The notes below the pieces were generated by a model, which was not told the origin of the DNA, ran no database searches, and saw nothing but the letters and a program-made list of their open reading frames with translations. DNA of 64,000 nucleotides, taken from the NCBI GenBank assembly GCA_033852015.1, contig JAWSVH010000116.1, positions 2,356 to 66,355 of the forward strand, given 5' to 3'. A program made the position numbers and the translations under genes. The stretch comes from Desulfobacula sp. Lineage in GTDB: Bacteria > Desulfobacterota > Desulfobacteria > Desulfobacterales > Desulfobacteraceae. Below, in pieces: positions 16,979 to 36,742 of this stretch; positions within the stretch are counted from its first letter, which is position 1, and the number at the start of each line of letters is the position of its first letter.

Positions 16979-18043
16979 TCAGCCGACCTTATTAATTATC
17001 TGATCTGCAAGCTTAATAAGATTTTTCACCCGTAAATCCCAAGATTCAAATCTTTTGTCCTGGGTTTGGCCATGAAAAAATCTATAATAAATCTGTTGAA
17101 CAATAGCAGCCAGACGAAACACACCGAATGTATGATAGAAGCTGAAATTATCTATTTTACGGCCACAAAGCTGTTCATAGTGTCTGACCATCTCCTCTCG
17201 GGTCAAAGCACCTGGCACATTTGAAGGCACATCTCGCCAGGTGTTGAGCATATCAGGATCACCGGATTGGACCCAATATCCCAACGATGCACCAAAGTCC
17301 ATTAAGGGATCACCGATGGTCGCCATCTCCCAATCCAAAACACCAACAACTCTAAATGGATTTTGGGGATCTAAAATAACATTATCAAATTTAAAGTCAT
17401 TGTGAATGATCGCACCTGGGCCTGACTTTTTTGGCATATTGTCCAGCAGCCAGGTTATAACTTTTTTTGCGCCCGGCGCACCAGGGGTTAAAGCTTTCTG
17501 ATATCGATAAGCCCACCCTTCCACCTGGCGCTTAACATATCCTTCAGGTTTCCCAAAGTCTTCCAGACCAATTTCTTTATAATCAATGGCATGAAGGTCA
17601 TATTGCACTTTAAGAACGGTTTCAAACAATCGGGTAACATTTTGGGGAGACATATTCAGTTCTTTTGGAAAACTCTTCCGAATGATAATACCACTGATCC
17701 GCTCCATTAAATAAAACGGGCAACCTAAAATACTCTCGTCCTCTGTATATAATAATGGTCTAGGACAATAGGGATAAACATCCTTTAACGCACTGAGTAT
17801 CCGATATTCACGACCCATATCATGTGCAGATTTTGCTTTTGTACCATGCGGTGGGCATCGAAGTACCATTTGTTTTTCACCGATACAAACCAAATAGGTA
17901 AGATTAGAATGTCCACTGGGAAACTGATGAATTGTAACAGACCCCTCAAGCCCTTTAATTTCATCACGGATAAAAGACTCAATTTTTTTTAAAGGTAATT
18001 CTTCACCTTCCCGAATATTAGATGCCTTATCAATCAACGCCAT
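16979..18043 (-). CDS. Phosphotransferase-family kinase of the ACAD10/ACAD11 N-terminal (APH-like) type
   Basis: HQFPSGHSNLTYLV, catalytic IHNDFKFDNVILD and VLDWEMATIGDPLMDF motifs, plus GYVKRQVEGW, characteristic of the ACAD10/11-like and LvaA-like branch of APH kinases. AAGGAAA RBS. Confidence 0.88.
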   Translation of the reverse strand: MALIDKASNIREGEELPLKKIESFIRDEIKGLEGSVTIHQFPSGHSNLTYLVCIGEKQMVLRCPPHGTKAKSAHDMGREYRILSALKDVYPYCPRPLLYTEDESILGCPFYLMERISGIIIRKSFPKELNMSPQNVTRLFETVLKVQYDLHAIDYKEIGLEDFGKPEGYVKRQVEGWAYRYQKALTPGAPGAKKVITWLLDNMPKKSGPGAIIHNDFKFDNVILDPQNPFRVVGVLDWEMATIGDPLMDFGASLGYWVQSGDPDMLNTWRDVPSNVPGALTREEMVRHYEQLCGRKIDNFSFYHTFGVFRLAAIVQQIYYRFFHGQTQDKRFESWDLRVKNLIKLADQIINKVG

Positions 18044-18150
18044 GAAAATTTCCTTTTTTGCTTATTTGAGTTTATACCACCAACCCGATGTTAAATATCT
18101 TAAAATCTGTCGGTATCATGAATAAAATTTATATTAATAATATCATTCAT

Positions 18151-18185
18151 GTCAATAAAAAATAACGTACGTTCGTTTTTTCAAA
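18151..18185 (-). promoter_or_regulatory. Copy a of the conserved palindromic promoter/operator element (upstream of the kinase gene)
   Basis: Gene-direction sequence TTTGAAAAAACGAACGTACGTTATTTTTTATTGAC, then A completing TTGACA, then 16 nt, then TATAAA. Shares the 13-nt core AAAAAACGAACGT with three other sites. Confidence 0.55.
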
Positions 18186-18739
18186 TGGATCTTCTTCATT
18201 GACTTTAAAGTCATATCTTTTATGTCCCACCATATGAAACAAAATCAAAGAGACCGTTGATATTGGCAAATTTGGCAGGGGTACATTTACCGGCGTGAAA
18301 ACAAATAGCAAAACCTAAAAATCGTTTTTTTTCAATTCACAGACACCTCTTATTTAATTTAAATTCATTCAGAAAAGCTTCTATTTTAATAGATATAATG
18401 ATCTGTTTTTCCCTGTTCGATAAGAATGCTCATTTCATAAAATTATAAAATATTTATTGACATGCATATTGTCTCCAATTATAAACTATTTCAGTGATTC
18501 GGTTAATTAAATTAGGATTTGTCCAATAAATGATTACACATAATAATATACTATTCATTGGGATGTAACTTTAAATTATTAAATAATTAGGAAACTATTT
18601 TAATCAGACAATCTGATTAATTAAAATATACTTTTACACATTATTTTTTCCTGAAACGAGCGTGCATTCTGGTGATAAAAAATTCACCACATAGAATAAT
18701 CACTCTATAATTTTAACTTTTTTATTTTGGAGATGCACT

Positions 18740-19117
18740 ATGAAGTCAGCACAAATCAAACTATCCTTAAAAATCATTATCATGGCCCTGTTTTTAACTG
18801 CCACACTGGTCATTTCTGCAAATGCTTCAGATGCTGACATGACCGGGATATGGAACATGGATGTTACAACACCCAATGGAACCGGCACACCTGTCTTTAC
18901 CTTAAAACAAGAAGGACAGAAACTTTCCGGTACTTACAAAGGAAAATTTGGTGAAGCACCGGTTACAGGAATGGTAAAAGGAAATACATTTGAAATAAAT
19001 TATGATTCGTCTGGAGTACCCATCAAATACAGCGGTACTATTGACGGTAACAATGTCATGGGAGATGTGGATTTCTCATCATATGGAGGTGGCTCTTTTA
19101 CTGGGGAAAAAGAATAA
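18740..19117 (+). CDS. Small secreted hypothetical protein
   Basis: Signal peptide (IIIMALFLTATLVISANA-SD), GGAG RBS, beta-rich mature part, followed by a clean terminator. Confidence 0.65.
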   Translation: MKSAQIKLSLKIIIMALFLTATLVISANASDADMTGIWNMDVTTPNGTGTPVFTLKQEGQKLSGTYKGKFGEAPVTGMVKGNTFEINYDSSGVPIKYSGTIDGNNVMGDVDFSSYGGGSFTGEKE

Positions 19118-19144
19118 CATCACATATAAAACTATTTTTTAAAG

Positions 19145-19175
19145 GGCTGAAATCTAATAATTTCAGCCTTTTTTT
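19145..19175 (+). terminator. Rho-independent terminator
   Basis: GGCTGAAAT / ATTTCAGCC 9-bp stem, 6-nt loop, followed by 7 T. Confidence 0.75.
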
Positions 19176-19287
19176 ATGTCCACCGTCTCAAACCCTAAAT
19201 CCCCTATCAAATAATCACCACAGGGTGGTATCTTCACTTTTCATGTTTACCTTATATTTCATGACTACAAAATAAGGAGGCCTTTCT

Positions 19288-20739
19288 ATGACAATACGAA
19301 CTTCTGATGAATATAAACAAAGTCTTCGTGACGATCGAAAAGTGTATATCCGTGGAGAAAAGATTGATGATATCACCCAAAATCCAATCCTTGGAGTTTG
19401 CACAGATACGGTTGCAGCGGCATATGACCTAACCAACTCAAAAGATCCTGAAATAAAAGATCTTTTTGTTGCTCCCCATCCAGAAACCGGTGAACCGGTA
19501 AACCGCTTTTTTATAACCCCTAAAAATCGAGAAGATCTGGCGCTTAGAACAAAAATGATTGGCCGATCCATGGAACTAATAGGGGATCTGCCCTTTGGTC
19601 GTGATATTGGAACAGATTGCCTTAATGCCGCCATTGTTGTCGCCGGCAAAATGGGCAATACTCAATACTTAAAAAATGCTAAAAATTTTCTTGAGCATTT
19701 ACGGAAAAACGATTTATTTACGTGTGGCGCAGTCACCTGCGTAAAGGGCGATCGGTCCAAGGAACCTGCTCAGCAAAAACACCCGGACTATTATGTCCAT
19801 GTCGTAGGCTCCAATGAAGAGGGCATTATTGTCAAAGGAGCCAAGGCCCATATCACGAATGCACCCATGGCAAATGAAATCATTGTAATTCCCACAAGAC
19901 AAATGCGTGAGAATGAAGCAGAGTACGCCGTTGCCTTTGCCATCCCGTCAAATACCAAAGGCATCAGCTTTATCTGCCGCAGCGGCCGGGGCGCATGGTC
20001 TGAAAATGAATTTCACCCGGACAACCCCCTAAGAGAATTAACCGAGGCACTAATTATATTTGATAATGTTCTCGTACCATGGGACAGGGTTTTTATGAAT
20101 GGTGAATGGAAATATTCGATGCTTTTAGCCTATACTTTCGCTACCTTCCATCGGTTTACAGCCATCAGCTATAAATTATCTCTGGTAGAAGTTATGGCAG
20201 GCTGTGCTGTTGCCATGTCTAAATACAATGGTTTGGAAAAAGTGGGCCATATCCGGGGGAAACTTGCCGATATTGCAGCCTATGTAGAAACACTTCGGGC
20301 ACTAACCAATGCTGCAGCACAAGCCCCGGTTATGTATGGAGACATTGCAGTACCCAACCCTCTAATTGCCAACATGGCCAAACTGCATTTTTCCAGCAAG
20401 TATCATAATTTTATTCAACTCATCCAGGATATTGGTGGTGGAATCATTGGTACCGCACCAGATAAAAAAGATTGGGACCACCCGGATATTCATGAATATC
20501 TGGACCATTACCTAGGAGGCAGTGCAGAATACAGCACCCTTGAGCGCATGAAGATGATCCATGAAACCATGCGTCAGGTCTGCTCCCAGGAATCGGCTTT
20601 TCATGAGCTGATCACCGTACATGCAGAAGGTTCCATGGAAGCACAGAAAATGATGATTTTAAATGAATCACCTCTTGACCGGTATGAGAAATTGGCAAAG
20701 AGAAAAGCTGGAATCATACCCTGGGATGAGAGAATATAA
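19288..20739 (+). CDS. 4-hydroxybutyryl-CoA dehydratase / HpaB-family protein, divergent paralog lacking the Fe-S cluster cysteines
   Basis: Full-length similarity to the two other paralogs and to the AbfD layout (..IVKGAKAHITNA.., ..YAVAFAIPS..). Aligned cluster ligands are replaced: PFGRD instead of CFQRC, and FHRFTAISY instead of YHRQSYxxC. AGGAGG RBS. Confidence 0.85.
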   Translation: MTIRTSDEYKQSLRDDRKVYIRGEKIDDITQNPILGVCTDTVAAAYDLTNSKDPEIKDLFVAPHPETGEPVNRFFITPKNREDLALRTKMIGRSMELIGDLPFGRDIGTDCLNAAIVVAGKMGNTQYLKNAKNFLEHLRKNDLFTCGAVTCVKGDRSKEPAQQKHPDYYVHVVGSNEEGIIVKGAKAHITNAPMANEIIVIPTRQMRENEAEYAVAFAIPSNTKGISFICRSGRGAWSENEFHPDNPLRELTEALIIFDNVLVPWDRVFMNGEWKYSMLLAYTFATFHRFTAISYKLSLVEVMAGCAVAMSKYNGLEKVGHIRGKLADIAAYVETLRALTNAAAQAPVMYGDIAVPNPLIANMAKLHFSSKYHNFIQLIQDIGGGIIGTAPDKKDWDHPDIHEYLDHYLGGSAEYSTLERMKMIHETMRQVCSQESAFHELITVHAEGSMEAQKMMILNESPLDRYEKLAKRKAGIIPWDERI

Positions 20740-20760
20740 ATATTCTAAAATTTGATTAAT

Positions 20761-20806
20761 AAAAAAATCCCGATGAGCATTATAAAACAGCTCACCGGGA
20801 TTTTTT
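20761..20806. terminator. Bidirectional rho-independent terminator between convergent AbfD-family genes
   Basis: ATCCCGATGAGC / GCTCACCGGGAT 12-bp stem with one mismatch, flanked by an A-run upstream and a T-run downstream. Confidence 0.7.
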
Positions 20807-20852
20807 ATCGCTTATCTAAAATATCTATCTAAACTTTTGATAGATTCCTAAA

Positions 20853-22337
20853 CTATTTTTTCTTTTTCTTCTCGTCCAATTCCATACCAGCAATGTTCTT
20901 AACAATATCTTTACAACTATTAATATCATACTGACCATAGATAGCAATCTGCTCCATAATAGGAGATCCTCCACCGTGCATACTTCCGTAAGCGATTGCA
21001 CCGGTAATTCCGGAGTTAGTATAATCATGGAACAACATCCAGAATTTTTTCTGGTCTTCTACCGTCATCTCCTGGTTACGTGTAATATATTTTTCCAAAA
21101 GTTCTTTTGTTTCAGGATTTGCAAAGTCGCCTTCATGGGGAAAAGTTGATGGCATTCCACCCGCAATCTCACACAAGATCTGTTGTTCTTTAAATACAGA
21201 CTCACCTGTCAGGTAACGACCCACATTGGCATAGATTGAATCAGGGATCATAGAACCTGGTCCATAAGGCATCTTACCAACACCTGGAATATAAACCTTG
21301 GCTTCACCCTTTGCAGATGCAGTAAATCCTGCAGCATAACCAAGTTCTGCAATCGTAATTAATTCTGCGATCTTCTCTCGCACATGGGGTGCCTTATCGA
21401 TTCCGTTCACTTCTGCAGCAAGCGCTGAAAATCCAATCAACATATCACCAACAGCAGGTTTACATCCAGAATATGAGTGCCTGTGAAACAGTGCAAACAA
21501 CAGGGCACAAATACCACCATGCTGAGTCTCTCCACAAAGGAATACTCTTTCCCAGGGCACAAATACATCATCAAAAATTACGTAAGAATCAACAAAGCCA
21601 AAATCAAATCCACGGGGGGTATCGACTCTATTAGGCATGTTATGGGGAGAAAGCACCTGTTTAATCTGGGGATGATCCGCCTCAATGGCAAAAGCCACTG
21701 CATATTCAGACTCATCTTTTCCAAGGGCACGGGTCGGCAACACAAGAATCTCATCTGCAACAGAAGCAAATGTAATATGAACCTTACAACCTCGAACCAC
21801 TATGCCTTTATCATTTTTTTCTACCACTCGAAGATATTGATCAGGATCGGGTTGCTCTGCCGGACGTTTCATGCGAAGTCCTTTTACATCTGTCTGAGCA
21901 CAGGAACCCACCAGGTCCTCTTTCTGAAAATTTTCAAGCCATTTCAGAAAATTTTCATGATATTTGCTTTCACCTTTATTCATCTTATCGGCTTCAAAAG
22001 AAACTGAATTCAAAGCATTTAGCGCATCAACACCCATGCATCTTCCAATACACTGGCTTACTTTCTGGACATACATCCGGGTCATGTCCTGTTTTTTATG
22101 CAGATCATCTATGGTCTGGTGTACATGGTTGAATCTATTAATGGTATCGCCAGTGATATGACTGGTTGCAGTAGTAATATCCTGCACGTCTGAATCCTCG
22201 GCCAAATCAAAGCTGACGCCAATAACATTGGCAGCAGCAACGAGTGCTTTATGATCCCTGGGAACCTTTTCTCCATCAAGGTACAGATTACTATTCTTTG
22301 TTAACAAACTGTCTAAATATTGTTGTTTTGTACGCAT
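20853..22337 (-). CDS. 4-hydroxybutyryl-CoA dehydratase/vinylacetyl-CoA isomerase family protein (paralog 2, cluster ligands present)
   Basis: QCIGRCMGVDALNAL (C-x3-C) and FHRHSYSGCK (His + Cys) align with the AbfD [4Fe-4S] ligands. IVVRGCKVHIT and YAVAFAI blocks. AGGAGAAAG RBS. Confidence 0.88.
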   Translation of the reverse strand: MRTKQQYLDSLLTKNSNLYLDGEKVPRDHKALVAAANVIGVSFDLAEDSDVQDITTATSHITGDTINRFNHVHQTIDDLHKKQDMTRMYVQKVSQCIGRCMGVDALNALNSVSFEADKMNKGESKYHENFLKWLENFQKEDLVGSCAQTDVKGLRMKRPAEQPDPDQYLRVVEKNDKGIVVRGCKVHITFASVADEILVLPTRALGKDESEYAVAFAIEADHPQIKQVLSPHNMPNRVDTPRGFDFGFVDSYVIFDDVFVPWERVFLCGETQHGGICALLFALFHRHSYSGCKPAVGDMLIGFSALAAEVNGIDKAPHVREKIAELITIAELGYAAGFTASAKGEAKVYIPGVGKMPYGPGSMIPDSIYANVGRYLTGESVFKEQQILCEIAGGMPSTFPHEGDFANPETKELLEKYITRNQEMTVEDQKKFWMLFHDYTNSGITGAIAYGSMHGGGSPIMEQIAIYGQYDINSCKDIVKNIAGMELDEKKKKK

Positions 22338-22439
22338 TCACTTTCTCCTAATTAAAAAATTAAAACCGCTTTTTTTTAATGTTATATGTTTCATTAAGGC
22401 CCAATCAATTCATACAACATCGTTTTATATAATATCTTT

Positions 22440-23321
22440 TTATATTAAGGCTTGTCCTGTATCAGGATCATACCTGTAAAAACCCTCATTCGTTTTTCGT
22501 CCCAACTTTCCTTTGGCTACCATATCCTCGACCAACGTGCTCTCAGAAAAAAGATACGTCTCGTTCATAGATTTCATGGATCTATTAATTCGTCCCACTG
22601 TATCCAATCCTGCATTATCGACGATTTCAAAGGGTCCTTTATTCCATCCATATCCCAATCGCATACCCGCATCAATATCTTCAGGACTTGCAATACCCTT
22701 TGCAACCAGTTCCTGACATTCTCTGAAGGCGGCAGAAAAAACCCGATTCATGACAAAGCCTGGAATATCTTTTTGAACACCCACCGGATGTTTGCCTATG
22801 TTTTTGATAAATTCAATTCCAGAAGCATATACATCATCCGAGGTTTGCTCTCCTTTAACGACCTCTACAAGACCCATAAATGGCACTGGTCCAAAAAAGT
22901 GCAGTCCTACAAATCGCTCCGGTTTAGTTAAAAAAGAAGCCAGTTGACTCACCGGAATAGAAGAGGTGTTTGTGGCAATAATGGTCTCTTTCCCAACCTG
23001 TGGTTCCAGCTCTTCAAGCAAGCTTTTTTTCAAATCCAAATCTTCAAACACCGCTTCTACAACCAAAAACAAATTCGCACCTGTTTTAGCATCCACTTTT
23101 ATACCTTCAACAAGCTCAAGACGTTCGAGCACAACATCGACCGACTCCTTTATTTTACCTTTTTGATTCAACTTCTCTAAAGACCAGATGATATTTTTCT
23201 TTGCTCGTTCAAGCATTGTTTTTTCAACATCACTTAAAATTACTTGATAACCACATTGGATACATACCTGGGCAATACCCGAACCCATAAACCCAGCCCC
23301 AATTACCATTATTTTTTTCAT
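22440..23321 (-). CDS. 3-hydroxyacyl-CoA (3-hydroxybutyryl-CoA) dehydrogenase
   Basis: N-terminal Rossmann motif IMVIGAGFMGSGIAQV, then ..HFFGPVPFMGLVEVV.. and C-terminal ..GRKTNEGFYRY. Start overlaps the TetR stop by 4 nt. Confidence 0.9.
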   Translation of the reverse strand: MKKIMVIGAGFMGSGIAQVCIQCGYQVILSDVEKTMLERAKKNIIWSLEKLNQKGKIKESVDVVLERLELVEGIKVDAKTGANLFLVVEAVFEDLDLKKSLLEELEPQVGKETIIATNTSSIPVSQLASFLTKPERFVGLHFFGPVPFMGLVEVVKGEQTSDDVYASGIEFIKNIGKHPVGVQKDIPGFVMNRVFSAAFRECQELVAKGIASPEDIDAGMRLGYGWNKGPFEIVDNAGLDTVGRINRSMKSMNETYLFSESTLVEDMVAKGKLGRKTNEGFYRYDPDTGQALI

Positions 23322-24034
23322 AAAGCCTCTCCCTGGGGTATAAGTTCACTATTTTCAACACCCAAATAATTTTCCATGAATTCAATAACAAAATCAGCAT
23401 ATTCATCGACAGAGACACCCCTGGATCTAAATTTTGATCGTTTTAAATACCAATTGGCAAACAAGGCTTTTACGACTTCCGCTGTAAGCGTGATATTTCG
23501 TTCAACGAACAACTCCTGGTCCTGTCCTTCTTCTAATATAGATTCTAAAAGTGTTTCTGTGGCAAGGTCCCCTTCGATGGCTTTCTTTCTTTCTTTTAAA
23601 TTTAAATTCTTAGCTTCCATAAAAGAGAAATAAAACCAAGGCTGCATGAGTTCACTCGAAAAAACATGGGCTTGAACCAAAGCTCTTAACTGATCCACAG
23701 GATTATCCTGTTCATTAATCTCATGGTTAATAATACGACCAACCACCTCTCTGAACTGATATTGCAGCATACTCAAAAGGTCGTCTTTACTGCTAAAATA
23801 CGCATAAAGTGCCCCAAGACTGATGCCGGTTTCCTGTCGCAAATCCCGCATACTCATTACTTGAAAGCCTTTTTTATTACTTATTTTCAAGGCCGCTTTA
23901 AAAATTATGTCCAGATTCTTCATGACAGTTTTTTCTTTTTTAATTCGAATACTACCGCGATTTTCTGCAATAGTTTCTAAAAAAATCTCCTGCTCTACAA
24001 CCACCATCATTTTTTTAAATTGCTTGTAATCCAT
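23318..24034 (-). CDS. TetR/AcrR-family transcriptional regulator (TetR-1)
   Basis: HTH region KGFQVMSMRDLRQETGISLGALYAYFSSKDDLL. Clear paralog of the 28294..28974 regulator. First gene of a tetR-hbd-abfD unit. Confidence 0.88.
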   Translation of the reverse strand: MDYKQFKKMMVVVEQEIFLETIAENRGSIRIKKEKTVMKNLDIIFKAALKISNKKGFQVMSMRDLRQETGISLGALYAYFSSKDDLLSMLQYQFREVVGRIINHEINEQDNPVDQLRALVQAHVFSSELMQPWFYFSFMEAKNLNLKERKKAIEGDLATETLLESILEEGQDQELFVERNITLTAEVVKALFANWYLKRSKFRSRGVSVDEYADFVIEFMENYLGVENSELIPQGEAL

Positions 24035-24122
24035 AGTTTAAGCCGATCAATCGTTTTTAATAAAATTAAAAGATATGAGTGATGTATTCATGGCTATAAA
24101 ATTACACGAACAAATTAAGCCT

Positions 24123-24162
24123 GTCAACAAAAAAAATAACGTACGTTCGTTTTTTATTGATC
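24123..24162 (-). promoter_or_regulatory. Copy b of the conserved palindromic promoter/operator element (upstream of TetR-1)
   Basis: Gene-direction GATCAATAAAAAACGAACGTACGTTATTTTTTTTGTTGAC, then A (TTGACA), 17 nt, TAATTT. Confidence 0.55.
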
Positions 24163-24231
24163 GAAACAAATAGGCTATCGATCATCATATTGGGGTATTA
24201 GAAAACAAAAGAACAAGGTGGGAGAAATAAA

Positions 24232-24271
24232 AATCCCCCGGGCGATTAAACAAGTTTAACGCCCGGGGGAT
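24232..24271 (-). terminator. Rho-independent terminator after the crotonase gene
   Basis: AATCCCCCGGGCG / CGCCCGGGGGATT 13-bp GC-rich stem, followed on the minus strand by TTTTTATTT. Confidence 0.8.
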
Positions 24272-24296
24272 TAAAAGATACCAGTATATTTACTAC

Positions 24297-25076
24297 TTAT
24301 TTACCAGTAAATTTGGCTTTACGTTTTTGAAGAAATGCTGCCATTCCTTCCTTTTGATCTGCAGTTCCAAACAGCATACCGAACAAATCCTGTTCGATAC
24401 AGATGCCATCTTTCAAGGAGACATTCAACCCCTTTCGCATGGCAGTCTTAACTGCACGAAGTGCAATCGGTGGTCTTGCCATAAGTTGATTGGCAAATTT
24501 AACGACGGCATCTTTAAGCTCTTCCTGAGGAACAACGCGATTCAAAATCCCTACTTGATGAGCTCTCTCAGCTTTCATCATGCCACCCAGCATAAGCATT
24601 TCTGCAGCAATGGAATAGTTGATCAAACGTGGTAGTCTCTGGGTTCCGCCGCCACCAGGAATAATCCCCAGTGTGATTTCAGGCAAACCGACAACCACGT
24701 TATCTGCAGCAATTCTAAAATCACAGCAAAGAGCGGTCTCAAGACCGCCACCAAGGGCATATCCAGACATCATAGCGATGGTTGGCTTTCCAAGATCAGC
24801 AAGACGCTCGGTAACCGGTATGATTTCATCTGAAAACTTATATGCATCTGCAATATCACCAGTGGACATCTGTTCAATGTCTGCACCTGCCGCAAATACT
24901 TTGTCACCACCGGTAATAACCAGCACACGGACCTCATCGTCACCCGCAACTTCATCTACCACTCTTCCAATATCACCAAATACATCTGAGTTCAATGCAT
25001 TCAGTTTAGTCGGACGGTTAAGCTGGGCCCATGCAATGCCATCTTCTTTAGTGTAAATTATAGTTTTAAGATTCAT
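24297..25076 (-). CDS. Enoyl-CoA hydratase (crotonase family)
   Basis: ..VLVITGGDKVFAAGADI.., ..GYALGGGLETALCCDFRIA.. and the C-terminal ..EGMAAFLQKRKAKFTGK are typical crotonase motifs. AGGAGA RBS. Confidence 0.92.
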   Translation of the reverse strand: MNLKTIIYTKEDGIAWAQLNRPTKLNALNSDVFGDIGRVVDEVAGDDEVRVLVITGGDKVFAAGADIEQMSTGDIADAYKFSDEIIPVTERLADLGKPTIAMMSGYALGGGLETALCCDFRIAADNVVVGLPEITLGIIPGGGGTQRLPRLINYSIAAEMLMLGGMMKAERAHQVGILNRVVPQEELKDAVVKFANQLMARPPIALRAVKTAMRKGLNVSLKDGICIEQDLFGMLFGTADQKEGMAAFLQKRKAKFTGK

Positions 25077-25097
25077 TAAAAATCTCCTTTTAGAATC

Positions 25098-25970
25098 TTA
25101 TTTTTTGCTATAGTCGTACCAGCCTTTTCCTGTTTTCTGACCATATTCGCCGTTTGTGTATTTTTCAACGACACAAGGGCTTGGACAATCAATTGGATCA
25201 CCACTTTCTCTGAAAGCTTCCATTCCCATAATGTAAGCAAGATCGATACCTGTCAGATCCATGAGAGTGAAGGGACCCATTGGGTGTCCTGCGCCAAATA
25301 CACATGCCTTATCAATATCTTCAACAGATGCAACACCCATATCCAATATCCATTGTGCTTCTTTTCCAATCACTTTGAAGATCCGGTTCAACAAGAAACC
25401 TGGCACTTCTTTTTTAACGTGAACGGGTACTTTGCCCAGTTTTTTACAAAGATCCATGGAGATCTGTGCAGTTTCATCAGAAACATGCGGTCCCTGAACA
25501 ACTTCAACAAGCTTCATAACCAGTGCAGGATTGAAAAAATGAAGGTTACATACTTTATCTGGACGATTGGTAACATCCGCAATTTTTGAAGACACGATAA
25601 AAGAGCTGTTGGTAGCAAGAATAGCATGTTTAGGAGCAAATTTATCCAGATCAGCAAACAGCTGACGTTTAATATGCATAACTTCAATGGCAGCTTCAAT
25701 AACGTAATCTGCTTCTTTTACACACTCTTCCAGATTATTGGTAAAGCTAATACGGCCACGGACTGCCTTAGCTTCGTCTTCAGTCATTTTGCCTTTAGCA
25801 ACACGACCGGGAAGATATTTATCAACAAATGCATCAGCTTTGTCCAGCATGTCCTGACTGATGTCAGAACATTTGACATTATAACCGATAATTGCACAGT
25901 GAAGGCTGATCTGATGACCCATGTTGCCAGCACCGATGATAGAAATATTTTTGATATCATCAATATTCAT
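25098..25970 (-). CDS. 3-hydroxyacyl-CoA dehydrogenase (second paralog)
   Basis: ISIIGAGNMGHQISL Rossmann motif, HFFNPALVMKLVEVV, C-terminal GQKTGKGWYDY. AAGGAGAA RBS. Confidence 0.92.
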   Translation of the reverse strand: MNIDDIKNISIIGAGNMGHQISLHCAIIGYNVKCSDISQDMLDKADAFVDKYLPGRVAKGKMTEDEAKAVRGRISFTNNLEECVKEADYVIEAAIEVMHIKRQLFADLDKFAPKHAILATNSSFIVSSKIADVTNRPDKVCNLHFFNPALVMKLVEVVQGPHVSDETAQISMDLCKKLGKVPVHVKKEVPGFLLNRIFKVIGKEAQWILDMGVASVEDIDKACVFGAGHPMGPFTLMDLTGIDLAYIMGMEAFRESGDPIDCPSPCVVEKYTNGEYGQKTGKGWYDYSKK

Positions 25971-25996
25971 TTTTCTTTTCTCCTTAATTATTAAAT

Positions 25997-27202
25997 TTAA
26001 CGCTGAAGGTTCTCAATAACAGTGGCAACACCCAGTCCACCACCACAGCAGGAACCGAACACGCCATAACGACCGCCTTTACGGATCATATCACGCATGG
26101 TGAACATGCAAAGCCTTGCTCCGGAAGCACCATTGGGATGACCAAATGAAATCGCTCCACCCATTGGATTCCATTTTTCCATATCCACTTTTTCGCCAGT
26201 GATTTTTTCCATTTCTTTAATAACAGCAAGGTTCTGTACAGCGAATGCTTCGTTACATTCCATCGTATCCATATCAGACAATTTAAGTCCAGCACGTTCA
26301 ATGGCCTGGGGCATTGCAACGGCAGGTCCGATACCCATAATTTTGGGATCACATCCACAATCTGCACCGGACAACCATTTAGCCATTGGAGTATATCCCA
26401 GCTCTTTGGCTTTGTCCGCACTCATCATCAAAACAAATGCAGCACCATCATTCTGACCAGAAGCATTACCAGCAGTTACAGTACCGTCTTTTTTAAATAC
26501 CGGTCGAAGTTTCGCAAGACCTTCAAGAGTAGTCTGGGCACGAGGATGCTCATCCACATCAAATACAACTTCAGGAGTTCTTTTGGTAGCAGGGGTAACC
26601 ACAGGAATAATTTCATCATCAAAGTATCCAGCATCTTGAGCTGCTTTTGCTCTCATCTGGCTGTTATATGCAAACTGATCCTGATCTTCTCTGGAAATAT
26701 CATATTGTACCTGCAGATTTTCAGCAGTAAAACCCATTCCGATCTGTTCAGCAGGAACCGGAGAGTTCTGTTGCATAATAGGCATTGGGGGAATCAATTT
26801 GTGAGCTGGAGTTGATGAAGGAAACTTAAACGCCATCTGGCTGTAAGATTCCATACCACCGGCAATAACAATATCCGCCTGGTTAGCAAGAATCTTCCAA
26901 GCTGCATGGTTGATCGCATCAATCGCGCTACCACACTGCATTTCAACATAAGATGCAGATGTAGTCTGTGGCAAATCTGTACATAACATAGCATGACGTG
27001 CAGGATTCAGCGCAGAAGAACACCCCGTTGCAGAACCCAAAAACACACTATCGACATGTGCTTTTTCATGAATTTTTGTTTTGTCCAAAAGACCCTGAAT
27101 ACCGATACCGCCAAGTTTTGATGCAAAAAGATCCTTCAAAGAACCGCCCATACGTCCAAACGGTGTTCTAGCACCATCAATAAATACTACTTCTCTACTC
27201 AT
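25997..27202 (-). CDS. Acetyl-CoA C-acetyltransferase / thiolase
   Basis: EVVFIDGARTPFGR N-terminus, ..NEAFAVQ.., ..GGAISFGHPNGASGARL.. and CCGGGLGVA C-terminal thiolase signatures. AAGGAGAA RBS. Confidence 0.93.
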   Translation of the reverse strand: MSREVVFIDGARTPFGRMGGSLKDLFASKLGGIGIQGLLDKTKIHEKAHVDSVFLGSATGCSSALNPARHAMLCTDLPQTTSASYVEMQCGSAIDAINHAAWKILANQADIVIAGGMESYSQMAFKFPSSTPAHKLIPPMPIMQQNSPVPAEQIGMGFTAENLQVQYDISREDQDQFAYNSQMRAKAAQDAGYFDDEIIPVVTPATKRTPEVVFDVDEHPRAQTTLEGLAKLRPVFKKDGTVTAGNASGQNDGAAFVLMMSADKAKELGYTPMAKWLSGADCGCDPKIMGIGPAVAMPQAIERAGLKLSDMDTMECNEAFAVQNLAVIKEMEKITGEKVDMEKWNPMGGAISFGHPNGASGARLCMFTMRDMIRKGGRYGVFGSCCGGGLGVATVIENLQR

Positions 27203-27410
27203 ATTAATTTCTCCTTAATTAAACAATTATGTTTCTTAAGATTAAAGCCGCACCCCACATAGTAATCTTCCCTTAGGAGCTGGCACACTATATTCAAAAA
27301 ATACTATTTTGAAATCGATTACTTCATGAGATATAAACTCTTATTATACCAAACATATAGCCTTTGTATCAATATCAAAAACATTTAAATTACATGATCA
27401 TATATTTCCT

Positions 27411-27449
27411 GTCAATTATAAAATAACGTACGTTCGTTTTTTAATTGAC
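27411..27449 (-). promoter_or_regulatory. Copy c of the conserved palindromic promoter/operator element (upstream of the thiolase-hbd-crotonase operon)
   Basis: Gene-direction GTCAATTAAAAAACGAACGTACGTTATTTTATAATTGAC, then A (TTGACA), 17 nt, TAATTT. GTCAAT/ATTGAC outer arms. Confidence 0.55.
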
Positions 27450-27484
27450 GACAAAATCCTATTCAGCTTCTATGGCAAATTCAT

Positions 27485-28246
27485 TTATGCCAACGCACCG
27501 CCATCACAGGTCAAACAAATCCCAGTCGTAAAGCTTGAAGCATCCGAAGCCAAATAAAGAGCGGCTCCTGACATTTCATCCGGAACGGCATGTCGGCCTA
27601 AAGGAATACTTTTATAGACTTCGTTTACCAGGTCATCATTTTCCATTAACGCTGCAGAAAACTTTGTTTTTGTAAGTCCCGGCAAAAGTGCATTCACACG
27701 AATATTTTTTAATCCCAACTCTTTTGCAAGACCCTTTGTCATCGAAATCATTGCTGCTTTAGTAATCGAGTAGACGCCCTGCATGGGAGCCGGACGTTTA
27801 CCATTAATGGAACTGACATTGATCACAGATGCTTTTCCTGATGCTGCGAGCAATTCAATGGACCGTTGGATCAGAAAAAATGGCCCTTTAAGATTTACAG
27901 AAAATGTTTTATCCCATCGACCTTCATCAATTCCATCCATATTGCCAAAATAGGGATTTGTTGCAGCATTGTTCACGATAATATCAAGCTTACCAAATTT
28001 CTCTTTAACATAAGAAACAAGACCGTCAATCTGTTCAATGTCGCCCACATTACAGGCAAAGGCATCTGCACTTCCACCCGCCTTTTTAATATCTGCCACC
28101 ACACCTTCTAAACCATCAATTTTTCTACTAACCAGAATACAGTGCGCTCCATTTTGTGCATATGTATGGGCAATGGCCTCACCAATTCCACGGCTTGCAC
28201 CGGTTATAACGGCTACTCTTCCTTTTAAAGAAAACATATTTTCCAT
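27485..28246 (-). CDS. SDR-family oxidoreductase (3-oxoacyl reductase-like)
   Basis: VAVITGASRGIGEAIA (TGxxxGxG), NNAA, and the catalytic YSITKAA (YxxxK). Confidence 0.9.
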   Translation of the reverse strand: MENMFSLKGRVAVITGASRGIGEAIAHTYAQNGAHCILVSRKIDGLEGVVADIKKAGGSADAFACNVGDIEQIDGLVSYVKEKFGKLDIIVNNAATNPYFGNMDGIDEGRWDKTFSVNLKGPFFLIQRSIELLAASGKASVINVSSINGKRPAPMQGVYSITKAAMISMTKGLAKELGLKNIRVNALLPGLTKTKFSAALMENDDLVNEVYKSIPLGRHAVPDEMSGAALYLASDASSFTTGICLTCDGGALA

Positions 28247-28293
28247 TTTTCTATCCTTCTTTCTATATTTCTATTTTTTTAAATTCACACTTT

Positions 28294-28974
28294 TCATACG
28301 AGATAAAACGATTTTATAAACGTCAGAAGAAACTGTGCGTATTGATCAACATCGATTTTCCTTCTTGAATACTTTCCCCGTTTTAAATACCAGTCCTGGA
28401 GCATGGATTTTATAACACTGGCACCCAGAGTATGGTCACCTGGTTTAAACACTCCTTTTTCATATCCTTCAACCAGGATATCTGCAATAATTTTTTCCGT
28501 ATACAACTCGCTTTGGACAGATCTTTCCATTTCTTCGGGGTTTAAATTTTTAGCTTCCATATACGAAAAATAGAACCACTGGTGCATTTTCTCAGTCAAA
28601 AAAAGATGAACTTCTATAACTATTTCTAACTTCTCAAGAGGCGTCTTCTCTTTTATTAAAAATTCTTCAAACACCTGCTTAATGATTTTACGACCCTGAC
28701 CTAAATAAACCGTTAAAATCTCATCTTTGCTTGAAAAATAAGAATAAAGAGCCCCCATACTCAGGCCGGAGCCACTGCTCAGGTCCCGCATAGTCATAGC
28801 CTGAAAGCCTTTTGAAATACCAATTTTTAAAGTAGTATCAAAAATCTTTTCTAAATTTTTTATAACCACTGCCTCTTTTTTAATCTGGATTTTTTCTTTG
28901 TGCTCCAAAAAAGCAGCCCTACAGATATCAATTTTTGAATCAGGAATAATTTTTACAAATTCACTATATTTCAT
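28294..28974 (-). CDS. TetR/AcrR-family transcriptional regulator (TetR-2, paralog of TetR-1)
   Basis: KGFQAMTMRDLSSGSGLSMGALYSYFSSKDEIL. Start moved to the internal ATG at 28974 (MKYSEF..) because it aligns with the MDYKQF.. start of TetR-1. Confidence 0.85.
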   Translation of the reverse strand: MKYSEFVKIIPDSKIDICRAAFLEHKEKIQIKKEAVVIKNLEKIFDTTLKIGISKGFQAMTMRDLSSGSGLSMGALYSYFSSKDEILTVYLGQGRKIIKQVFEEFLIKEKTPLEKLEIVIEVHLFLTEKMHQWFYFSYMEAKNLNPEEMERSVQSELYTEKIIADILVEGYEKGVFKPGDHTLGASVIKSMLQDWYLKRGKYSRRKIDVDQYAQFLLTFIKSFYLV

Positions 28975-29091
28975 TGCAAGTCGTGTTTCCCTTCTGAAGC
29001 TATTGGGTACAATTTGCGATATATCGAGCAAAAGTTCCCAATGCTTTAAAGTTTAGTAGATCGAATAAAAAAGCCATTAGCCTATCATTGT

Positions 29092-29802
29092 TCATCTATA
29101 TGTCAAAATTGTTTTATCACCGGTTAATTCCAAGTGAGTTATGTCATTAAATCCAGACAAACTGACCTGCCCTAAACCATATCTTAACCGTGTAACAGAT
29201 GCATTAACCACCTGCCAGGATGTTTCAATGGCTTTAAAATCACTTAAGTCCATTGCCAATTGAACTGCTGCACAGATTGGCCCTCCCGAAGAAAAAACAG
29301 CAATTTTTTTTGATGGTCCTTCTCGGTCCATTATCGCCTTTAAACCACTGACAACCTGCCGTTTAAAATCGCTCCAAATCACATCACCATCTGAATCATA
29401 TTCTCCGGACACCCATCGACGAACAACTTTGGAAAATACTTTTTGGAACGCAGTATTATTTAAGGGATCTTTGTTAAGTGTCTCTAAAAGATCAGGAGTC
29501 TGTTTTAGCATTCCACTTATCTGTGCCTCCCATACTGCATCTGAATCATACTCATTAAAACGTTTATCAACCACAGGTTCAGGAACAAACAATCCTTTGG
29601 CCTGATATGCATCTATCATACCTTTGGCTGTTTTTTGCTGACGATCCATCTGTCCAAAATAAATTGCATCAAATTTTATATCAAGCCCCGCAAGGTGTTG
29701 ACCCAGGATCGCAGCCTGTTTCACCCCTGTATCGGAAAGCCTGTCATAATTTTTCGCCCCAAAGGATGCCTGACCATGCCGAATAAGATAAATTTCACTC
29801 AT
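29092..29802 (-). CDS. Histidine phosphatase (phosphoglycerate mutase) superfamily protein
   Basis: IYLIRHGQASFG catalytic RHG motif. Start set to ATG 29802 (MSEIYLIRHGQ), 1 nt after the upstream stop. Confidence 0.85.
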   Translation of the reverse strand: MSEIYLIRHGQASFGAKNYDRLSDTGVKQAAILGQHLAGLDIKFDAIYFGQMDRQQKTAKGMIDAYQAKGLFVPEPVVDKRFNEYDSDAVWEAQISGMLKQTPDLLETLNKDPLNNTAFQKVFSKVVRRWVSGEYDSDGDVIWSDFKRQVVSGLKAIMDREGPSKKIAVFSSGGPICAAVQLAMDLSDFKAIETSWQVVNASVTRLRYGLGQVSLSGFNDITHLELTGDKTILTYR

Positions 29803-29803
29803 T

Positions 29804-30103
29804 TTAACGTTTAATTCTACTAACTTCTTTATACATTTCAATCTGAGGTTTTTCGGCAACAAAAGCTGCTGTTTCTTTCATTGCTGCTGTAAAATAATCT
29901 GTCTTACCATGATGATCCAGAGCCGCTTTGTCTTTATACACCTCAAAAACCATAAAAGTACATGGATCACTCAAGGACACATTCAAAACATATTCAAGCG
30001 TTCCTTCTTCTGCCTCAACTTTTTTGACCAAAGCACTTAATGCCGCTTCGAGATCGGCTTCGCTACCCTTTTTAGCCTTAATTTTTGCCATCAAAGTAAT
30101 CAT
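29804..30103 (-). CDS. Antibiotic-biosynthesis-monooxygenase (ABM/Dabb) domain protein
   Basis: 99 aa. ITLMAKIKAKKG...YVLNVS..DPCTFMVFEVYKDKAALDHH pattern is typical of the ferredoxin-like ABM fold. AAGGAGAG RBS. Confidence 0.8.
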   Translation of the reverse strand: MITLMAKIKAKKGSEADLEAALSALVKKVEAEEGTLEYVLNVSLSDPCTFMVFEVYKDKAALDHHGKTDYFTAAMKETAAFVAEKPQIEMYKEVSRIKR

Positions 30104-30169
30104 ATTCTCTCCTTTTTTAAATGAACATTATACATATAAAGATTTACCTTACAGACGAGAGAATAAAGT

Positions 30170-30207
30170 GTCAAGAAAAAACGAACGTTTGTTCTATTTT
30201 TCTTGAC
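30170..30207 (+). promoter_or_regulatory. Copy d of the conserved palindromic promoter/operator element (divergent ABM operon / etfBA region)
   Basis: GTCAAGAAAAAACGAACGTTTGTTCTATTTTTCTTGAC with perfect 11-bp outer arms (GTCAAGAAAAA/TTTTTCTTGAC). Each arm reads TTGACA toward its flanking gene. On the plus side it is followed by 17 nt and TAAATA. Confidence 0.55.
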
Positions 30208-30342
30208 ACTTGTTAGAAAGGGCTTTAAATAAAGATTATTATCAAGTTTTTAGATTCTATTGATCATTTTATTAATCATGATAAACTAAGCCATTAAAGT
30301 GTTTAAAATTACATGTTTAAAAAAAACTTCGGGATACAAAAA

Positions 30343-31119
30343 ATGAAAATTCTGGTTTGTATAAAACAGGTCATGGAATCTGGTTCACCAATTAAGATTG
30401 ACCCCTCCGGAAAATGGCTGCAATATTCACAGTCCACTCGATTTGAAATAAACAAATACGATGAATATGCCATTGAAGAAGCCATCCAAATAAAAGAAAA
30501 TTTTAAAGATACACAGATTGATGTCATTACGGTAGGCCCCTCCCATGCATCTGATGTTTTACGCAGAGCCCTTGGAATGGGTGCAGATGAAGCGATCCAT
30601 ATCTTAGATGAAGCAAAGGGATATCGCCCTCCAGCGATTACAGCTGAATGGATTACAGCTTTTGTAAAAAAAGAGACCTATGACCTGATCTTTACGGGAA
30701 TCATGTCCGATGATGAAATGAATGCCCAGACCGGCGTGATGATTAGCCAGATTCTTGACTGGCCATGCGCTACGGCTGTCATCAAAGAAGAGATTTCAAA
30801 TGACCGAAAGAAAATGCGTATCGAACGAGAGATAGAGGGCGGTGCAAAAGACATATTTGACATCACACTGCCATGTGTGTTGACCATCCAAACCGGTATC
30901 AACACCCCCAGATACCCTTCTCTATCAAAAGTTTTGAGAGCAAAGAAAAAAACGCTTCAAATAATCCCGGCGAAAACACTAAAAACAGCGGAACAAATAC
31001 CCAGCCTTGAAACCATTCAATTCCCTGAAAAAACAACCCGGGGTATTGTATTAAAAGGAAGTAGCCAAGATAAAGCCAAAGCGCTTTTGAACATATTGGC
31101 TTCAAAAACACTGGTATAA
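30343..31119 (+). CDS. etfB: Electron transfer flavoprotein, beta subunit
   Basis: MKILVCIKQV... start (ATG 30343), ..NKYDEYAIEEA.., ..DLIFTG..SDD.. are typical EtfB blocks. Confidence 0.9.
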   Translation: MKILVCIKQVMESGSPIKIDPSGKWLQYSQSTRFEINKYDEYAIEEAIQIKENFKDTQIDVITVGPSHASDVLRRALGMGADEAIHILDEAKGYRPPAITAEWITAFVKKETYDLIFTGIMSDDEMNAQTGVMISQILDWPCATAVIKEEISNDRKKMRIEREIEGGAKDIFDITLPCVLTIQTGINTPRYPSLSKVLRAKKKTLQIIPAKTLKTAEQIPSLETIQFPEKTTRGIVLKGSSQDKAKALLNILASKTLV

Positions 31120-31133
31120 GCAAAGGCAGACCT

Positions 31134-32138
31134 ATGACAAAAAAAATCACAATTATAGCAGACCATGACGGAAAAAATATAAAACCCATCACCTGGGAAT
31201 TATTTGCCTTTGCAAAAAAAATACAAGCGCATGAAAAAGCAGATATCTATTTTTTCATTATTGGAGAAAACACCAAAGAACTTGCCCAGGATATAAGCAT
31301 TCATTCCGGATGCAAAACATATGCGATGGATGTCTTGGGCACCAATAATTATCATGGCCAAATCTATAAAAAAATACTGATACCGTTTTTAACAAAAAAC
31401 CCCGCTGACTATATTCTGGTTCCACACACCACATCGGGAATGGATTATGCGCCCGCCCTTTCCATTGCCCTTAAAGGTTCCTGCATCACTGCAGTAGAAG
31501 GGATACATAATAAAGATAATGTGCTACATTTTGTCCGTGCCATGTTTGGCAGAAAAATCCAGGCAGATCTTTCAAACAAAAATCTTGGTGCATCCTCCCC
31601 CCAGGTCCTTACACTTCAAGCGGGTTCGTTTAAACCATTTAAGCTTGACCAAAATGACATTAAAAATATCAATATCATCCATGAAGCATTCGACTGTCTT
31701 GAAAAAGAGATGATATATAAAGGATGTCAGCCTTCGCCTTCCAAAGGATCAAATCTTGCCAAGGCTGAGGTGATTGTTTCAGGGGGCAGAGGAATTGAAG
31801 AGGAAGAAAATTATAAATACATTGAAATGTTAGCAGACATCTTTCCCAGGTCTGCCACAGGCGCATCCCGGCCAATCTGTGACTATGGATGGGCCAAATA
31901 CAGTCAGCAAGTCGGGGCCACAGGAACAATAATCTCCCCAAAACTCTACATTGCCTGCGGTATTTCCGGTGCAACCCAACATCTTGAAGGAATAAGAGAT
32001 TCACAATTTATTGTTGCCATAAACTCAGACCCAGATGCACCCATCTTTCAAGTCGCTGATATCTGTATTATTGAAGACCTAACCGATTTCATACCCATTA
32101 TAGTCGAGACCGCAAAAAAAAAGCGCCCGACAAATTAA
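31134..32138 (+). CDS. etfA: Electron transfer flavoprotein, alpha subunit
   Basis: C-terminal FAD-binding block VSGGRGI...GASRP..D.GW....QVG.TG..I.PKLYIACGISGATQHL.G......IVAIN.D..APIF..AD. Confidence 0.92.
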   Translation: MTKKITIIADHDGKNIKPITWELFAFAKKIQAHEKADIYFFIIGENTKELAQDISIHSGCKTYAMDVLGTNNYHGQIYKKILIPFLTKNPADYILVPHTTSGMDYAPALSIALKGSCITAVEGIHNKDNVLHFVRAMFGRKIQADLSNKNLGASSPQVLTLQAGSFKPFKLDQNDIKNINIIHEAFDCLEKEMIYKGCQPSPSKGSNLAKAEVIVSGGRGIEEEENYKYIEMLADIFPRSATGASRPICDYGWAKYSQQVGATGTIISPKLYIACGISGATQHLEGIRDSQFIVAINSDPDAPIFQVADICIIEDLTDFIPIIVETAKKKRPTN

Positions 32139-35872: not shown

Positions 35873-36487
35873 TTAACTTTTATAGCCCAATGCTTTTAAA
35901 GCAAATAAAAACAAACAGTCAATAATTTCGTCAACTGACTTTTCACCACCGGACTTATACCATATTCTTGCACGAGCGATAATTGAAGCAATAGCAAATG
36001 CCGCCATTTTCACATCTGTTGATTCAAAAATCCCAGCATCAATCCCTCTGTGGATGACGATTCTCAGAATTTGATCATATTCATCTCGTTTTTCAATGAT
36101 TATCCTCTGGTGCTTCTTGCTCAGACTTCTTAAACTGGCATCAAACAATACTTTTGAGGTTCGCATCTTTCCCAAAGTCACTTTCCCATGGGATTCGAAA
36201 ATCAATCTTAATTGAGTCACAGGATCTGTTTTATCATCATCTCGTATCTGTTTTATAGCAGAAAGAATGCCTTCCATTTCCAGACTTAAAATTTCAAACA
36301 AAATATCTTCTTTGCTTGAGAAAAAATTATAAATATTGGCCGCTTCACACCCACAAGCAAGAGCGATATCTTTAACGGTTGTATTCTGATAACCCTTTTT
36401 ACCAAAGAGTGTTCTGGCCCGGGACATAATTTTGCTACGAACAGGACTTTGTTTTTTTGGTTTGTTTTTTTTTATATTTTTTGCCAC
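35873..36487 (-). CDS. TetR/AcrR-family transcriptional regulator (TetR-3, different subfamily)
   Basis: HTH region KGYQNTTVKDIALACGCEAANIYNFFSSKEDILF. The ORF-track start is TTG at 36496, immediately abutting AGAGG. GTG at 36487 gives 9-nt spacing, and ATG (MSRARTLF) further in is also possible, so the start is uncertain. Confidence 0.8.
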   Translation of the reverse strand: MAKNIKKNKPKKQSPVRSKIMSRARTLFGKKGYQNTTVKDIALACGCEAANIYNFFSSKEDILFEILSLEMEGILSAIKQIRDDDKTDPVTQLRLIFESHGKVTLGKMRTSKVLFDASLRSLSKKHQRIIIEKRDEYDQILRIVIHRGIDAGIFESTDVKMAAFAIASIIARARIWYKSGGEKSVDEIIDCLFLFALKALGYKS

Positions 36488-36666
36488 GTATTTCAACCTC
36501 TTTTGAGATTACCAACGGTTCTAATATACTACCTATCAAACCCATAAAATCCTGTTACTATACAGGAAAATTCATAATAGGTCCACAAATGCTACTCATA
36601 TTTTCATATGAATAGCATTTTTTTTCTGCATCAACTTCAACAATATCCAATCGAACAATATTTAAA

Positions 36667-36714
36667 CAAAAAAAAAGCTGGAAAGATTCTTATGTACAAA
36701 GAATCTTTCCAGCT
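36667..36714 (-). terminator. Rho-independent terminator after hcp
   Basis: AGCTGGAAAGATTCTT / AAGAATCTTTCCAGCT 16-bp perfect stem, 7-nt loop, followed on the minus strand by a 9-10 T run. Confidence 0.8.
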
Positions 36715-36742
36715 TTATAGTCAAGTTTTATTTCTTAGATTA

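Follow-up and report, generated by a model that had tools for sequence, protein, structure and literature searches.

Four copies of a palindromic element in a Desulfobacula contig as a probable FadR/FadP-like TetR operator-promoter module at acyl-CoA metabolism genes

A 64,000-nucleotide stretch of the Desulfobacula sp. contig JAWSVH010000116.1 (positions 2,356 to 66,355; hereafter the window) carries four copies of a palindromic element in front of genes of acyl-CoA metabolism: a kinase gene of the ACAD11 type, a tetR1-hbd-abfD unit, a thiolase-hbd-crotonase operon, and etfBA together with a divergent ABM-phosphatase-tetR2-SDR unit. An initial annotation of this DNA proposed that these copies are promoter/operator elements tying the kinase to the beta-oxidation, AbfD and electron transfer flavoprotein (ETF) genes as one regulon. 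The four sequences that it quoted were all recovered (a 18185-18151, b 24162-24123 and c 27449-27411 on the minus strand, d 30170-30207 on the plus strand), and its gene assignments downstream of the sites were every one confirmed by Pfam. The features are listed below; scores are those of the matrix described in the next paragraph, L numbers designate loci from other genomes, and A1, A2 and A3 are alignments of the tetR1, ABM/etfB and kinase promoters, respectively, with their orthologs.

18154..18183, minus strand: operator copy a, with the AAAAAACGAACGTACGTTATTTTTT core, ahead of the APH kinase gene; 35.5 bits; orthologous site at L128 1916-1945
18126..18155, minus strand: kinase promoter, -35 TTGACA at 18155-18150 and -10 TATAAA(TT) at 18133-18126; TTGACATG and ATTAATATAAATTTT invariant against L128 (A3)
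16979..18043, minus strand: APH-family kinase, ACAD11 kinase-domain homolog, putative 4-hydroxyacyl-CoA kinase; Pfam APH 2e-47, PDB 8v3v (ACAD11) 2e-49, 9o56 9e-98
24128..24157, minus strand: operator copy b, ahead of tetR1-hbd-abfD; 37.6 bits; invariant in L001, L047, L122 and L130 (A1)
24099..24127, minus strand: tetR1 promoter, -35 TTGACA at 24127-24122, 17-nt spacer, -10 TAATTT at 24104-24099; hexamers conserved, spacer diverged (A1)
20853..24034, minus strand: tetR1 23318-24034, hbd 22440-23321, AbfD-type dehydratase 20853-22337 (Pfam)
27415..27444, minus strand: operator copy c, ahead of thiolase-hbd-crotonase; 31.1 bits; conserved in L001, L047/L128, L122 and L129
27387..27415, minus strand: thiolase-operon promoter, -35 TTGACA at 27415-27410, 17-nt spacer, -10 TAATTT at 27392-27387; same layout in L001
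24297..27202, minus strand: thiolase 25997-27202, 3-hydroxybutyryl-CoA dehydrogenase 25098-25970, crotonase 24297-25076 (Pfam)
30174..30203, plus strand: operator copy d, the CGAACGTTTGTTC variant, common to two divergent promoters; 33.4 bits; TTTG variant kept in L001, L047, L122 and L123 (A2)
30203..30231, plus strand: etfBA promoter, -35 TTGACA at 30203-30208, -10 TAAATA at 30226-30231 (A2)
30146..30174, minus strand: ABM-operon promoter, -35 TTGACA at 30174-30169, -10 TAAGGT at 30151-30146; ACCTTAC and GTGTCAAG conserved in A2
27485..30103, minus strand: ABM 29804-30103, histidine phosphatase 29092-29862, tetR2 28294-28974, SDR 27485-28246 (Pfam)
30313..32138, plus strand: etfB 30313-31119, etfA 31134-32138 (Pfam)

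The 17-mer core AAAAACGAACGTWYGTT has four exact matches in the window, where 0.07 would be expected with up to two mismatches, and an unbiased repeat search of the same DNA ranks the four copies first, as family D1. A symmetric 30-bp position weight matrix (PWM), built from 26 Desulfobacterales sites including the four window sites, leaves the next best position in the 64-kb window at 12 bits, and none of the window shuffles reaches 20 bits. With the next best score so low, there is no weaker copy in the window before AbfD paralog 1, the 604-amino-acid acyl-CoA dehydrogenase (ACAD) gene or tetR3, in agreement with the earlier remark that AbfD paralog 1 and the tetR3-abfD3-acad unit lack the element.

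The conserved unit is a palindrome of about 24-30 bp (A5-6, N, GARCG, NN, YGYTM, N, T5), which reads GAACG-TA-CGTTA at sites a-c and GAACG-TT-TGTTC at site d. A 13-nt core is indeed common to all four copies, and the perfect palindrome AACGTACGTT is contained in three of them (a-c). TTGACA starts 12-15 bp from the palindrome centre, separated from the palindrome end by a gap of 1-3 bp, and at each copy the predicted AT-rich hexamer (TAnnnT) follows 16-17 nt further on; copy d has a TTGACA box on each side, one directed toward etfBA and the other toward the ABM operon. All sites are intergenic and lie 85-230 bp ahead of a start codon. The proposal that the copies are framed by inverted (G)TCAA...TTGAC arms could be kept in part: the promoter-side TTGACA is present, but the left arm is absent at a (TTTGA) and unconserved at b and c. 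Since the distance of the arms from the core varies (1-3 bp), site a has no left arm, and the sites in L001, L047 and L122 that are orthologous to b and c lack theirs, the outer arms are -35 boxes, two at the divergent site d and one at each of the other sites. As part of the palindrome they were rejected, given this variable distance and the lack of left-arm conservation at the unidirectional sites.

The main evidence that the element does something comes from its conservation in related genomes. Homologs of TetR1 are found in Desulfobacterales (Desulfobacula, Desulfonema, Desulfatitalea), and TetR homology was the sole criterion by which five loci were retrieved (L001, L122, L123, L125, L127). 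A motif pattern scan of genome contigs gave at least 17 further loci from Desulfobacterales and related metagenome-assembled genomes, and a metagenome scan with a stricter a-c-type pattern gave three, all of them known relatives, one providing the kinase site of L128. Across 97.5 kb, the TetR-fetched loci contain eight sites that score 20 bits or more, compared with none in 200 shuffles; these are distributed over four of the five loci, and all eight are at promoters of etfB/ABM/histidine phosphatase, thiolase or tetR1 genes. A PWM scan of about 302 kb of Desulfobacterales DNA, including the window, yielded 37 sites of at least 20 bits, all intergenic and all bar two (L005, L050) directly flanked by recognised genes of the set, namely etfB, ABM/histidine phosphatase, an ACAD11-like dehydrogenase, a 604-amino-acid-type ACAD with crotonase, thiolase, a TetR gene or the kinase. 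At nearly all of the 37, TTGAC is found 12-15 bp away from the centre, toward a downstream gene. In A1-A3 (window, L001, L047/L128 and L122, in part with L130), the operator, -35 and -10 boxes are invariant or nearly so over four genomes, with diverged spacers and flanks, and the coding DNA of the aligned relatives is 75-81% identical to that of the window. Because operator and hexamers stay constant while spacers, flanks and coding DNA diverge, the element and its promoters are predicted to be functional, and the description of the copies as promoter/operator elements holds up well.

The kinase gene was placed in the same regulon by the initial annotation, and here too the relatives agree, through sites at the same promoters, the kinase site of L128 and the adjacency of TetR and APH genes in seven loci. 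L128 and L047 come from one organism (99.98% identity). In L128, AbfD is directly followed by the kinase gene, whose operator and promoter are orthologous to those of the window kinase (AAAAAAAACGAGCGTACGCTATTTTAATTGACATG). The kinase gene comes directly after a TetR gene in L007, L062, L069, L119, L123, L125 and L127; in L069, L119, L123 and L125 this TetR-kinase pair is downstream, on the same strand, of the site that faces etfBA, and in L007 and L062 a site is likewise upstream of the cluster that holds the pair.

The two regulators encoded within the set, TetR1 and TetR2, are paralogs with 40% identity over 223 amino acids. Both have the TetR_N (PF00440; 3.6e-11 and 1.2e-09, respectively) and TetR_C_24 (PF17932; 8e-07 and 9.4e-12) domains. 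Among the solved structures closest to them are that of the named fatty-acid regulator FadR (3whb) and those of FadR/PfmR-type TetRs (3vpr, 5gp9, 1vi0, 3ang). The best NCBIfam model is that of Bacillus FadR (NF053878), with 45.9 bits for TetR1 and 40.2 bits for TetR2; these scores are far below its 200-bit equivalog cutoff, and the two were rejected as Bacillus-type FadR equivalogs and considered as related only. The palindrome is present at their own promoters, before tetR1 and before the tetR2 operon, an arrangement conserved in L001, L047/L128, L122 and L123. The suggestion that TetR1 and TetR2 bind the element is reinforced by the finding that most site-bearing Desulfobacterales loci also contain a TetR1/2 homolog, those in which none was detected being short or truncated stretches, and by the proximity of the palindrome to TetR genes in other phyla.

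This cross-phylum association was seen in a sample of at least 120 stretches from the genome contig scan, and the figures that follow hold among the matches listed. Outside the Desulfobacterales set there are 103 matches, of which 53, compared with an expectation of about 13, carry the perfect variant CGAACGTTCGTT. Of these 53, 29 have a TetR-like gene that begins no more than 400 bp from the site and points away from it, an arrangement seen at only 1/50 of the other variants (Fisher p = 5e-10); because of this difference, we interpret the perfect-palindrome class as a TetR operator in several phyla. The sequence AAAAACGAACGTTCGTTC(A/T)TTTT is directly upstream of a putatively autoregulated TetR gene in the Anaerolineae/Chloroflexi loci L004, L014, L025, L031, L035, L039, L042 and L046, with further such loci in the same group (L063, L072, L073, L084, L093, L097, L111 and others), and also in Acidovorax L032, L079 and L099 and in L019, L022 and L044. 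The Anaerolineae loci resemble the window in having the same palindrome directly upstream of a TetR gene, but differ in its placement, which in the loci inspected is past a -10-like TAAAAT and ahead of the TetR ribosome-binding site, and in their transporter-like neighbours: by eye, an ABC-2 permease-like gene after the TetR gene and, in some, a divergent transporter-like gene. The TetRs of other phyla resemble TetR1/2 across the helix-turn-helix (HTH) only, and the palindrome looks like an operator signature common to a cross-phylum subgroup of TetRs.

We give a probability of roughly 0.8 to the reading that each copy is an operator of a FadR-like TetR regulator (TetR1, TetR2 or both) acting by ligand-released repression. 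The operator would sit just ahead of the -35 box of a sigma-70-type promoter (TTGACA, 16-17 nt, TAnnnT), with its centre near -50 and a coverage of about -63 to -37, where an UP element would lie. One or more ligand-free TetR dimers would occupy it and block access of RNA polymerase to the -35 box and UP-element region, until released through the binding of a pathway intermediate, an acyl-CoA, to their TetR_C_24 domain. Five units would then be de-repressed: etfBA, ABM-phosphatase-tetR2-SDR, thiolase-hbd-crotonase, tetR1-hbd-AbfD and the ACAD11-type kinase. Site d would serve two divergent promoters with a single operator, and tetR1 and tetR2, being members of the controlled set, would both be autoregulated. 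Repression and an acyl-CoA ligand are proposed by analogy with the FadR-type relatives. Relatives with one TetR have a single operator, which separates etfBA from a long operon that includes the TetR and kinase genes; this layout is likely to be the older state, from which the lineage of the window would have duplicated the regulator and gained internal operator-promoter modules, one of them for a relocated kinase.

Several observations weigh against this scheme. The core palindrome (about -56 to -44) overlaps neither the -35 nor the -10 box, a position that would also suit an activator. Its dyad axis is ambiguous by 2 bp because AACG recurs, and a shifted axis, with AACGAAC on one side and GTTCGTT on the other, fits the perfect-palindrome variant equally well. 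The kinase gene of the closest relative, L001, has a promoter and no site, and L127 has the TetR-APH pair and no site in the 20 kb fetched, a locus that begins inside the operon. Lastly, an ACAD11-type dehydrogenase was looked for and none was found within the 64 kb, which counts against the link with the kinase.

The strongest competitor has the same TetRs acting as activators or dual regulators that recruit RNA polymerase from near -50, like TetRs of the LuxR/HapR or FasR type. The operator core, upstream of the -35 hexamer with no overlap, and the weak -10 boxes (TAATTT, TAAGGT, TAAATA) would fit such a role. However, the -35 boxes are perfect TTGACA hexamers at the optimal 17-nt spacing, so that there would be little need of an activator; those of the closest solved relatives that are named fatty-acid regulators are ligand-released repressors, the inspected Anaerolineae loci hold the palindrome in a repressor position, and activation would put both tetR genes under positive autoregulation. 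Taken together, we consider activation unlikely.

A still less probable alternative is that another transcription factor encoded elsewhere, for example of the LexA type, binds the sites and that the TetR genes are mere targets. Site d (CGAACGTTTGTTCT) does resemble the Cheo box CGAAC-N4-GTTCG, and four Staphylococcus loci (L024, L048, L057, L121) have AAAAACGAACGTAYGTTTGTAGGAGG-type matches to the search pattern just upstream of a parE-like topoisomerase IV gene, which look like SOS boxes; these are most likely LexA sites that fit the pattern by resemblance. Only d comes near the consensus, however, sites a-c having GTTA or GTTT in place of GTTC, and there is no SOS gene among the targets, all of which are acyl-CoA metabolism genes. 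The presence of a TetR1/2 homolog in most site-bearing Desulfobacterales loci and, among the matches listed, the strong tie between the perfect palindrome and adjacent TetR genes in other phyla also speak against an outside factor, as does the fact that the one remaining regulator of the cluster, TetR3, is preceded by an inverted repeat of another kind. A dispersed palindrome of the repetitive extragenic palindromic (REP) or miniature inverted-repeat transposable element (MITE) kind, an RNA hairpin or a terminator, with no specific regulatory role, is very improbable: although the copies are palindromic, b and c lie between co-directional genes and d folds at -22.9 kcal/mol (z = -6.9), the 64 kb contain just four copies, all at the promoters of one gene set and conserved at orthologous promoters despite diverged flanks, folding at sites a-c is weak (-3.7 to -9.6 kcal/mol, with no significant z), none has a GC-rich stem with a T-run or is reported by the terminator scan, no Rfam family matches, and d, being upstream of both -35 boxes, would be untranscribed on the promoter model.

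Within the repressor reading, a further question is whether TetR1 and TetR2 share all sites. In the two-TetR genomes, the etfBA/ABM site keeps GARCR-TT-TGYTC (4/4), and the thiolase, tetR1 and kinase sites keep GARCG-TA-CGYTW, with the perfect AACGTACGTT as core. As the variants are conserved according to position, they hint at a division of sites between the paralogs, and it is conceivable, if rather doubtful, that after the TetR duplication the two split the regulon, one answering to ordinary short-chain acyl-CoA and the other to the 4-hydroxyacyl-CoA or the 4-phosphoacyl-CoA made by the ACAD11-type kinase. Against this, the single-TetR relatives L123 and L125, whose regulator is TetR1-like, use the TTTG variant. 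If such a split exists, AbfD and a split ACAD11 pathway of bacterial type would be coupled to the beta-oxidation of sulfate reducers by a two-tier switch.

The term split ACAD11 refers to the mammalian enzymes ACAD10 and ACAD11, which phosphorylate 4-hydroxyacyl-CoA and eliminate the phosphate to give 2-enoyl-CoA (PMC12440821, PMC11342911). The window kinase is, to judge by its match (2e-49, as listed), a close homolog of the ACAD11 kinase domain, and the operons of relatives contain, beside a histidine phosphatase, a stand-alone ACAD with a match to the ACAD11 dehydrogenase domain (6e-85); this ACAD and the kinase of the relatives are identified as a split ACAD11. The difference from the mammalian proteins is that the domains are separate genes here, and the enzyme is a putative one, known from sequence. 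The window retains the kinase and the phosphatase of this set. In the relatives, the histidine phosphatase is followed by the ACAD (L122:4001-5194; also L007, L055, L059, L062, L069, L071, L119, L123, L125), and at several of these loci the ACAD is followed by a TetR gene and the ACAD11-type kinase, in that order. Through shared control and conserved gene order, a bacterial split ACAD11 kinase/dehydrogenase would thus be tied to beta-oxidation and ETF.

The promoters and their surroundings have some additional features. A generic promoter scan gave 71 matches in the window compared with 57 in shuffles, barely above background, and by itself backs only the promoter at site a. A second promoter-like site (27343-27372, minus strand: TTGATA, 18 nt, TG-n-TATAAT, 11/12), within the 227-nt stretch from operator c to the thiolase start, scores above the TTGACA/TAATTT thiolase promoter. 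In relatives, the tetR1 ATG is only 7-8 nt past the -10 box (L001:10070-10085, L047:7105-7120, L122:9995-10010), and for this reason their tetR1 mRNA probably has no leader. In the window, the tetR1 -10 box and the start are further apart by about 58 nt (24047-24091, minus strand), and these additional nucleotides make up a 14-codon open reading frame from the ancestral ATG position with its stop 12 nt ahead of the tetR1 start; the latter has no Shine-Dalgarno sequence. The kinase is parted from the tetR1-hbd-AbfD operon by an opposite-strand unit (18740-20739, plus strand) that consists of a gene for a 125-amino-acid protein that has no match in Pfam and whose N-terminus looks like a signal peptide, a terminator-like hairpin (19141-19172) and AbfD paralog 1, with no operator inside it. 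Since the kinase directly follows AbfD in L128, this unit looks like an insertion. Ahead of tetR3 (35873-36496), the different inverted repeat reported earlier is present as AATGCTATTCATATG-AAA-ATATGAGTAGCATT (36583-36614, minus strand) and is unrelated to the four-copy motif; it sits between the terminator of the Prismane gene (36674-36716) and tetR3, and is probably the TetR3 operator.

The scheme has well-known precedents. Bacillus FadR (YsiA) and Thermus FadR/PfmR are acyl-CoA-responsive TetR repressors of beta-oxidation genes, and their logic combines a palindromic operator at beta-oxidation and etf promoters with autoregulation and release by acyl-CoA. TetR1 and TetR2 resemble them in their closest solved structures and in their best NCBIfam model, but the sub-cutoff score of TetR1 and an N-terminal extension of about 40 amino acids in TetR1 and TetR2 set the Desulfobacula proteins apart. 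Nor are the operator sequences known to match, and the operator lies upstream of the -35 box here, whereas that of Bacillus/Thermus FadR is over the core promoter.

A second precedent is FadP of Ralstonia, Burkholderia and Comamonadaceae, a TetR-family protein predicted to regulate fatty-acid degradation (Kazakov et al., 2009, as cited in PMC5343134). According to PMC5343134 and its supplement, its regulon includes fadP itself, etfA, etfB, ACADs, thiolase, hbd and ech, and also two genes described as 'phosphotransferase enzyme family' (BPSL1235) and 'phosphoglycerate mutase' family (BPSL1236). The regulator is inside its own regulon in both systems, and the gene content is the same as that of the window and its relatives, kinase and phosphatase included; the differences are the other phylum and, in the window, the two paralogous regulators and the AbfD-type dehydratases. 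In Acidovorax, a member of the Comamonadaceae, AAAAACGAACGTTCGTTCTATTTT immediately precedes a TetR gene, which in L032 and L099 is followed by ACAD- and hbd-like genes. We infer that this TetR is FadP, and the Acidovorax matches suggest that the FadP motif may be the same palindrome as the one described here. TetR1 aligned with the L032 TetR only over 43 amino acids of the HTH (32% identity, E = 9e-6); because the likeness is confined to this domain, TetR1 and TetR2 are judged not to be orthologs of the Acidovorax protein.

The literature searched contained no description of a TetR fatty-acid regulon of this kind in Desulfobacteraceae, and nothing specific on the FadP motif. Our analysis indicates that the initial interpretation is largely right, that the element is most likely a FadR/FadP-like TetR operator-promoter module, and that the regulon is probably real, conserved and of a familiar kind; it leaves the general view of TetR regulons unchanged. 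It is of some interest for the joint control of a split ACAD11, for the chance that the two paralogs have divided the sites between them, and for the recurrence of the operator across phyla. The TetR family is very large and mostly uncharacterised, and a near-identical operator beside TetR genes in distant phyla could help to assign sites to a subgroup of it. Uncultured Desulfobacterales are major carbon oxidisers in marine sediment, and for these organisms the window provides a testable regulon for short-chain and 4-hydroxy acyl-CoA catabolism, with a predicted operator, promoters and candidate regulators.

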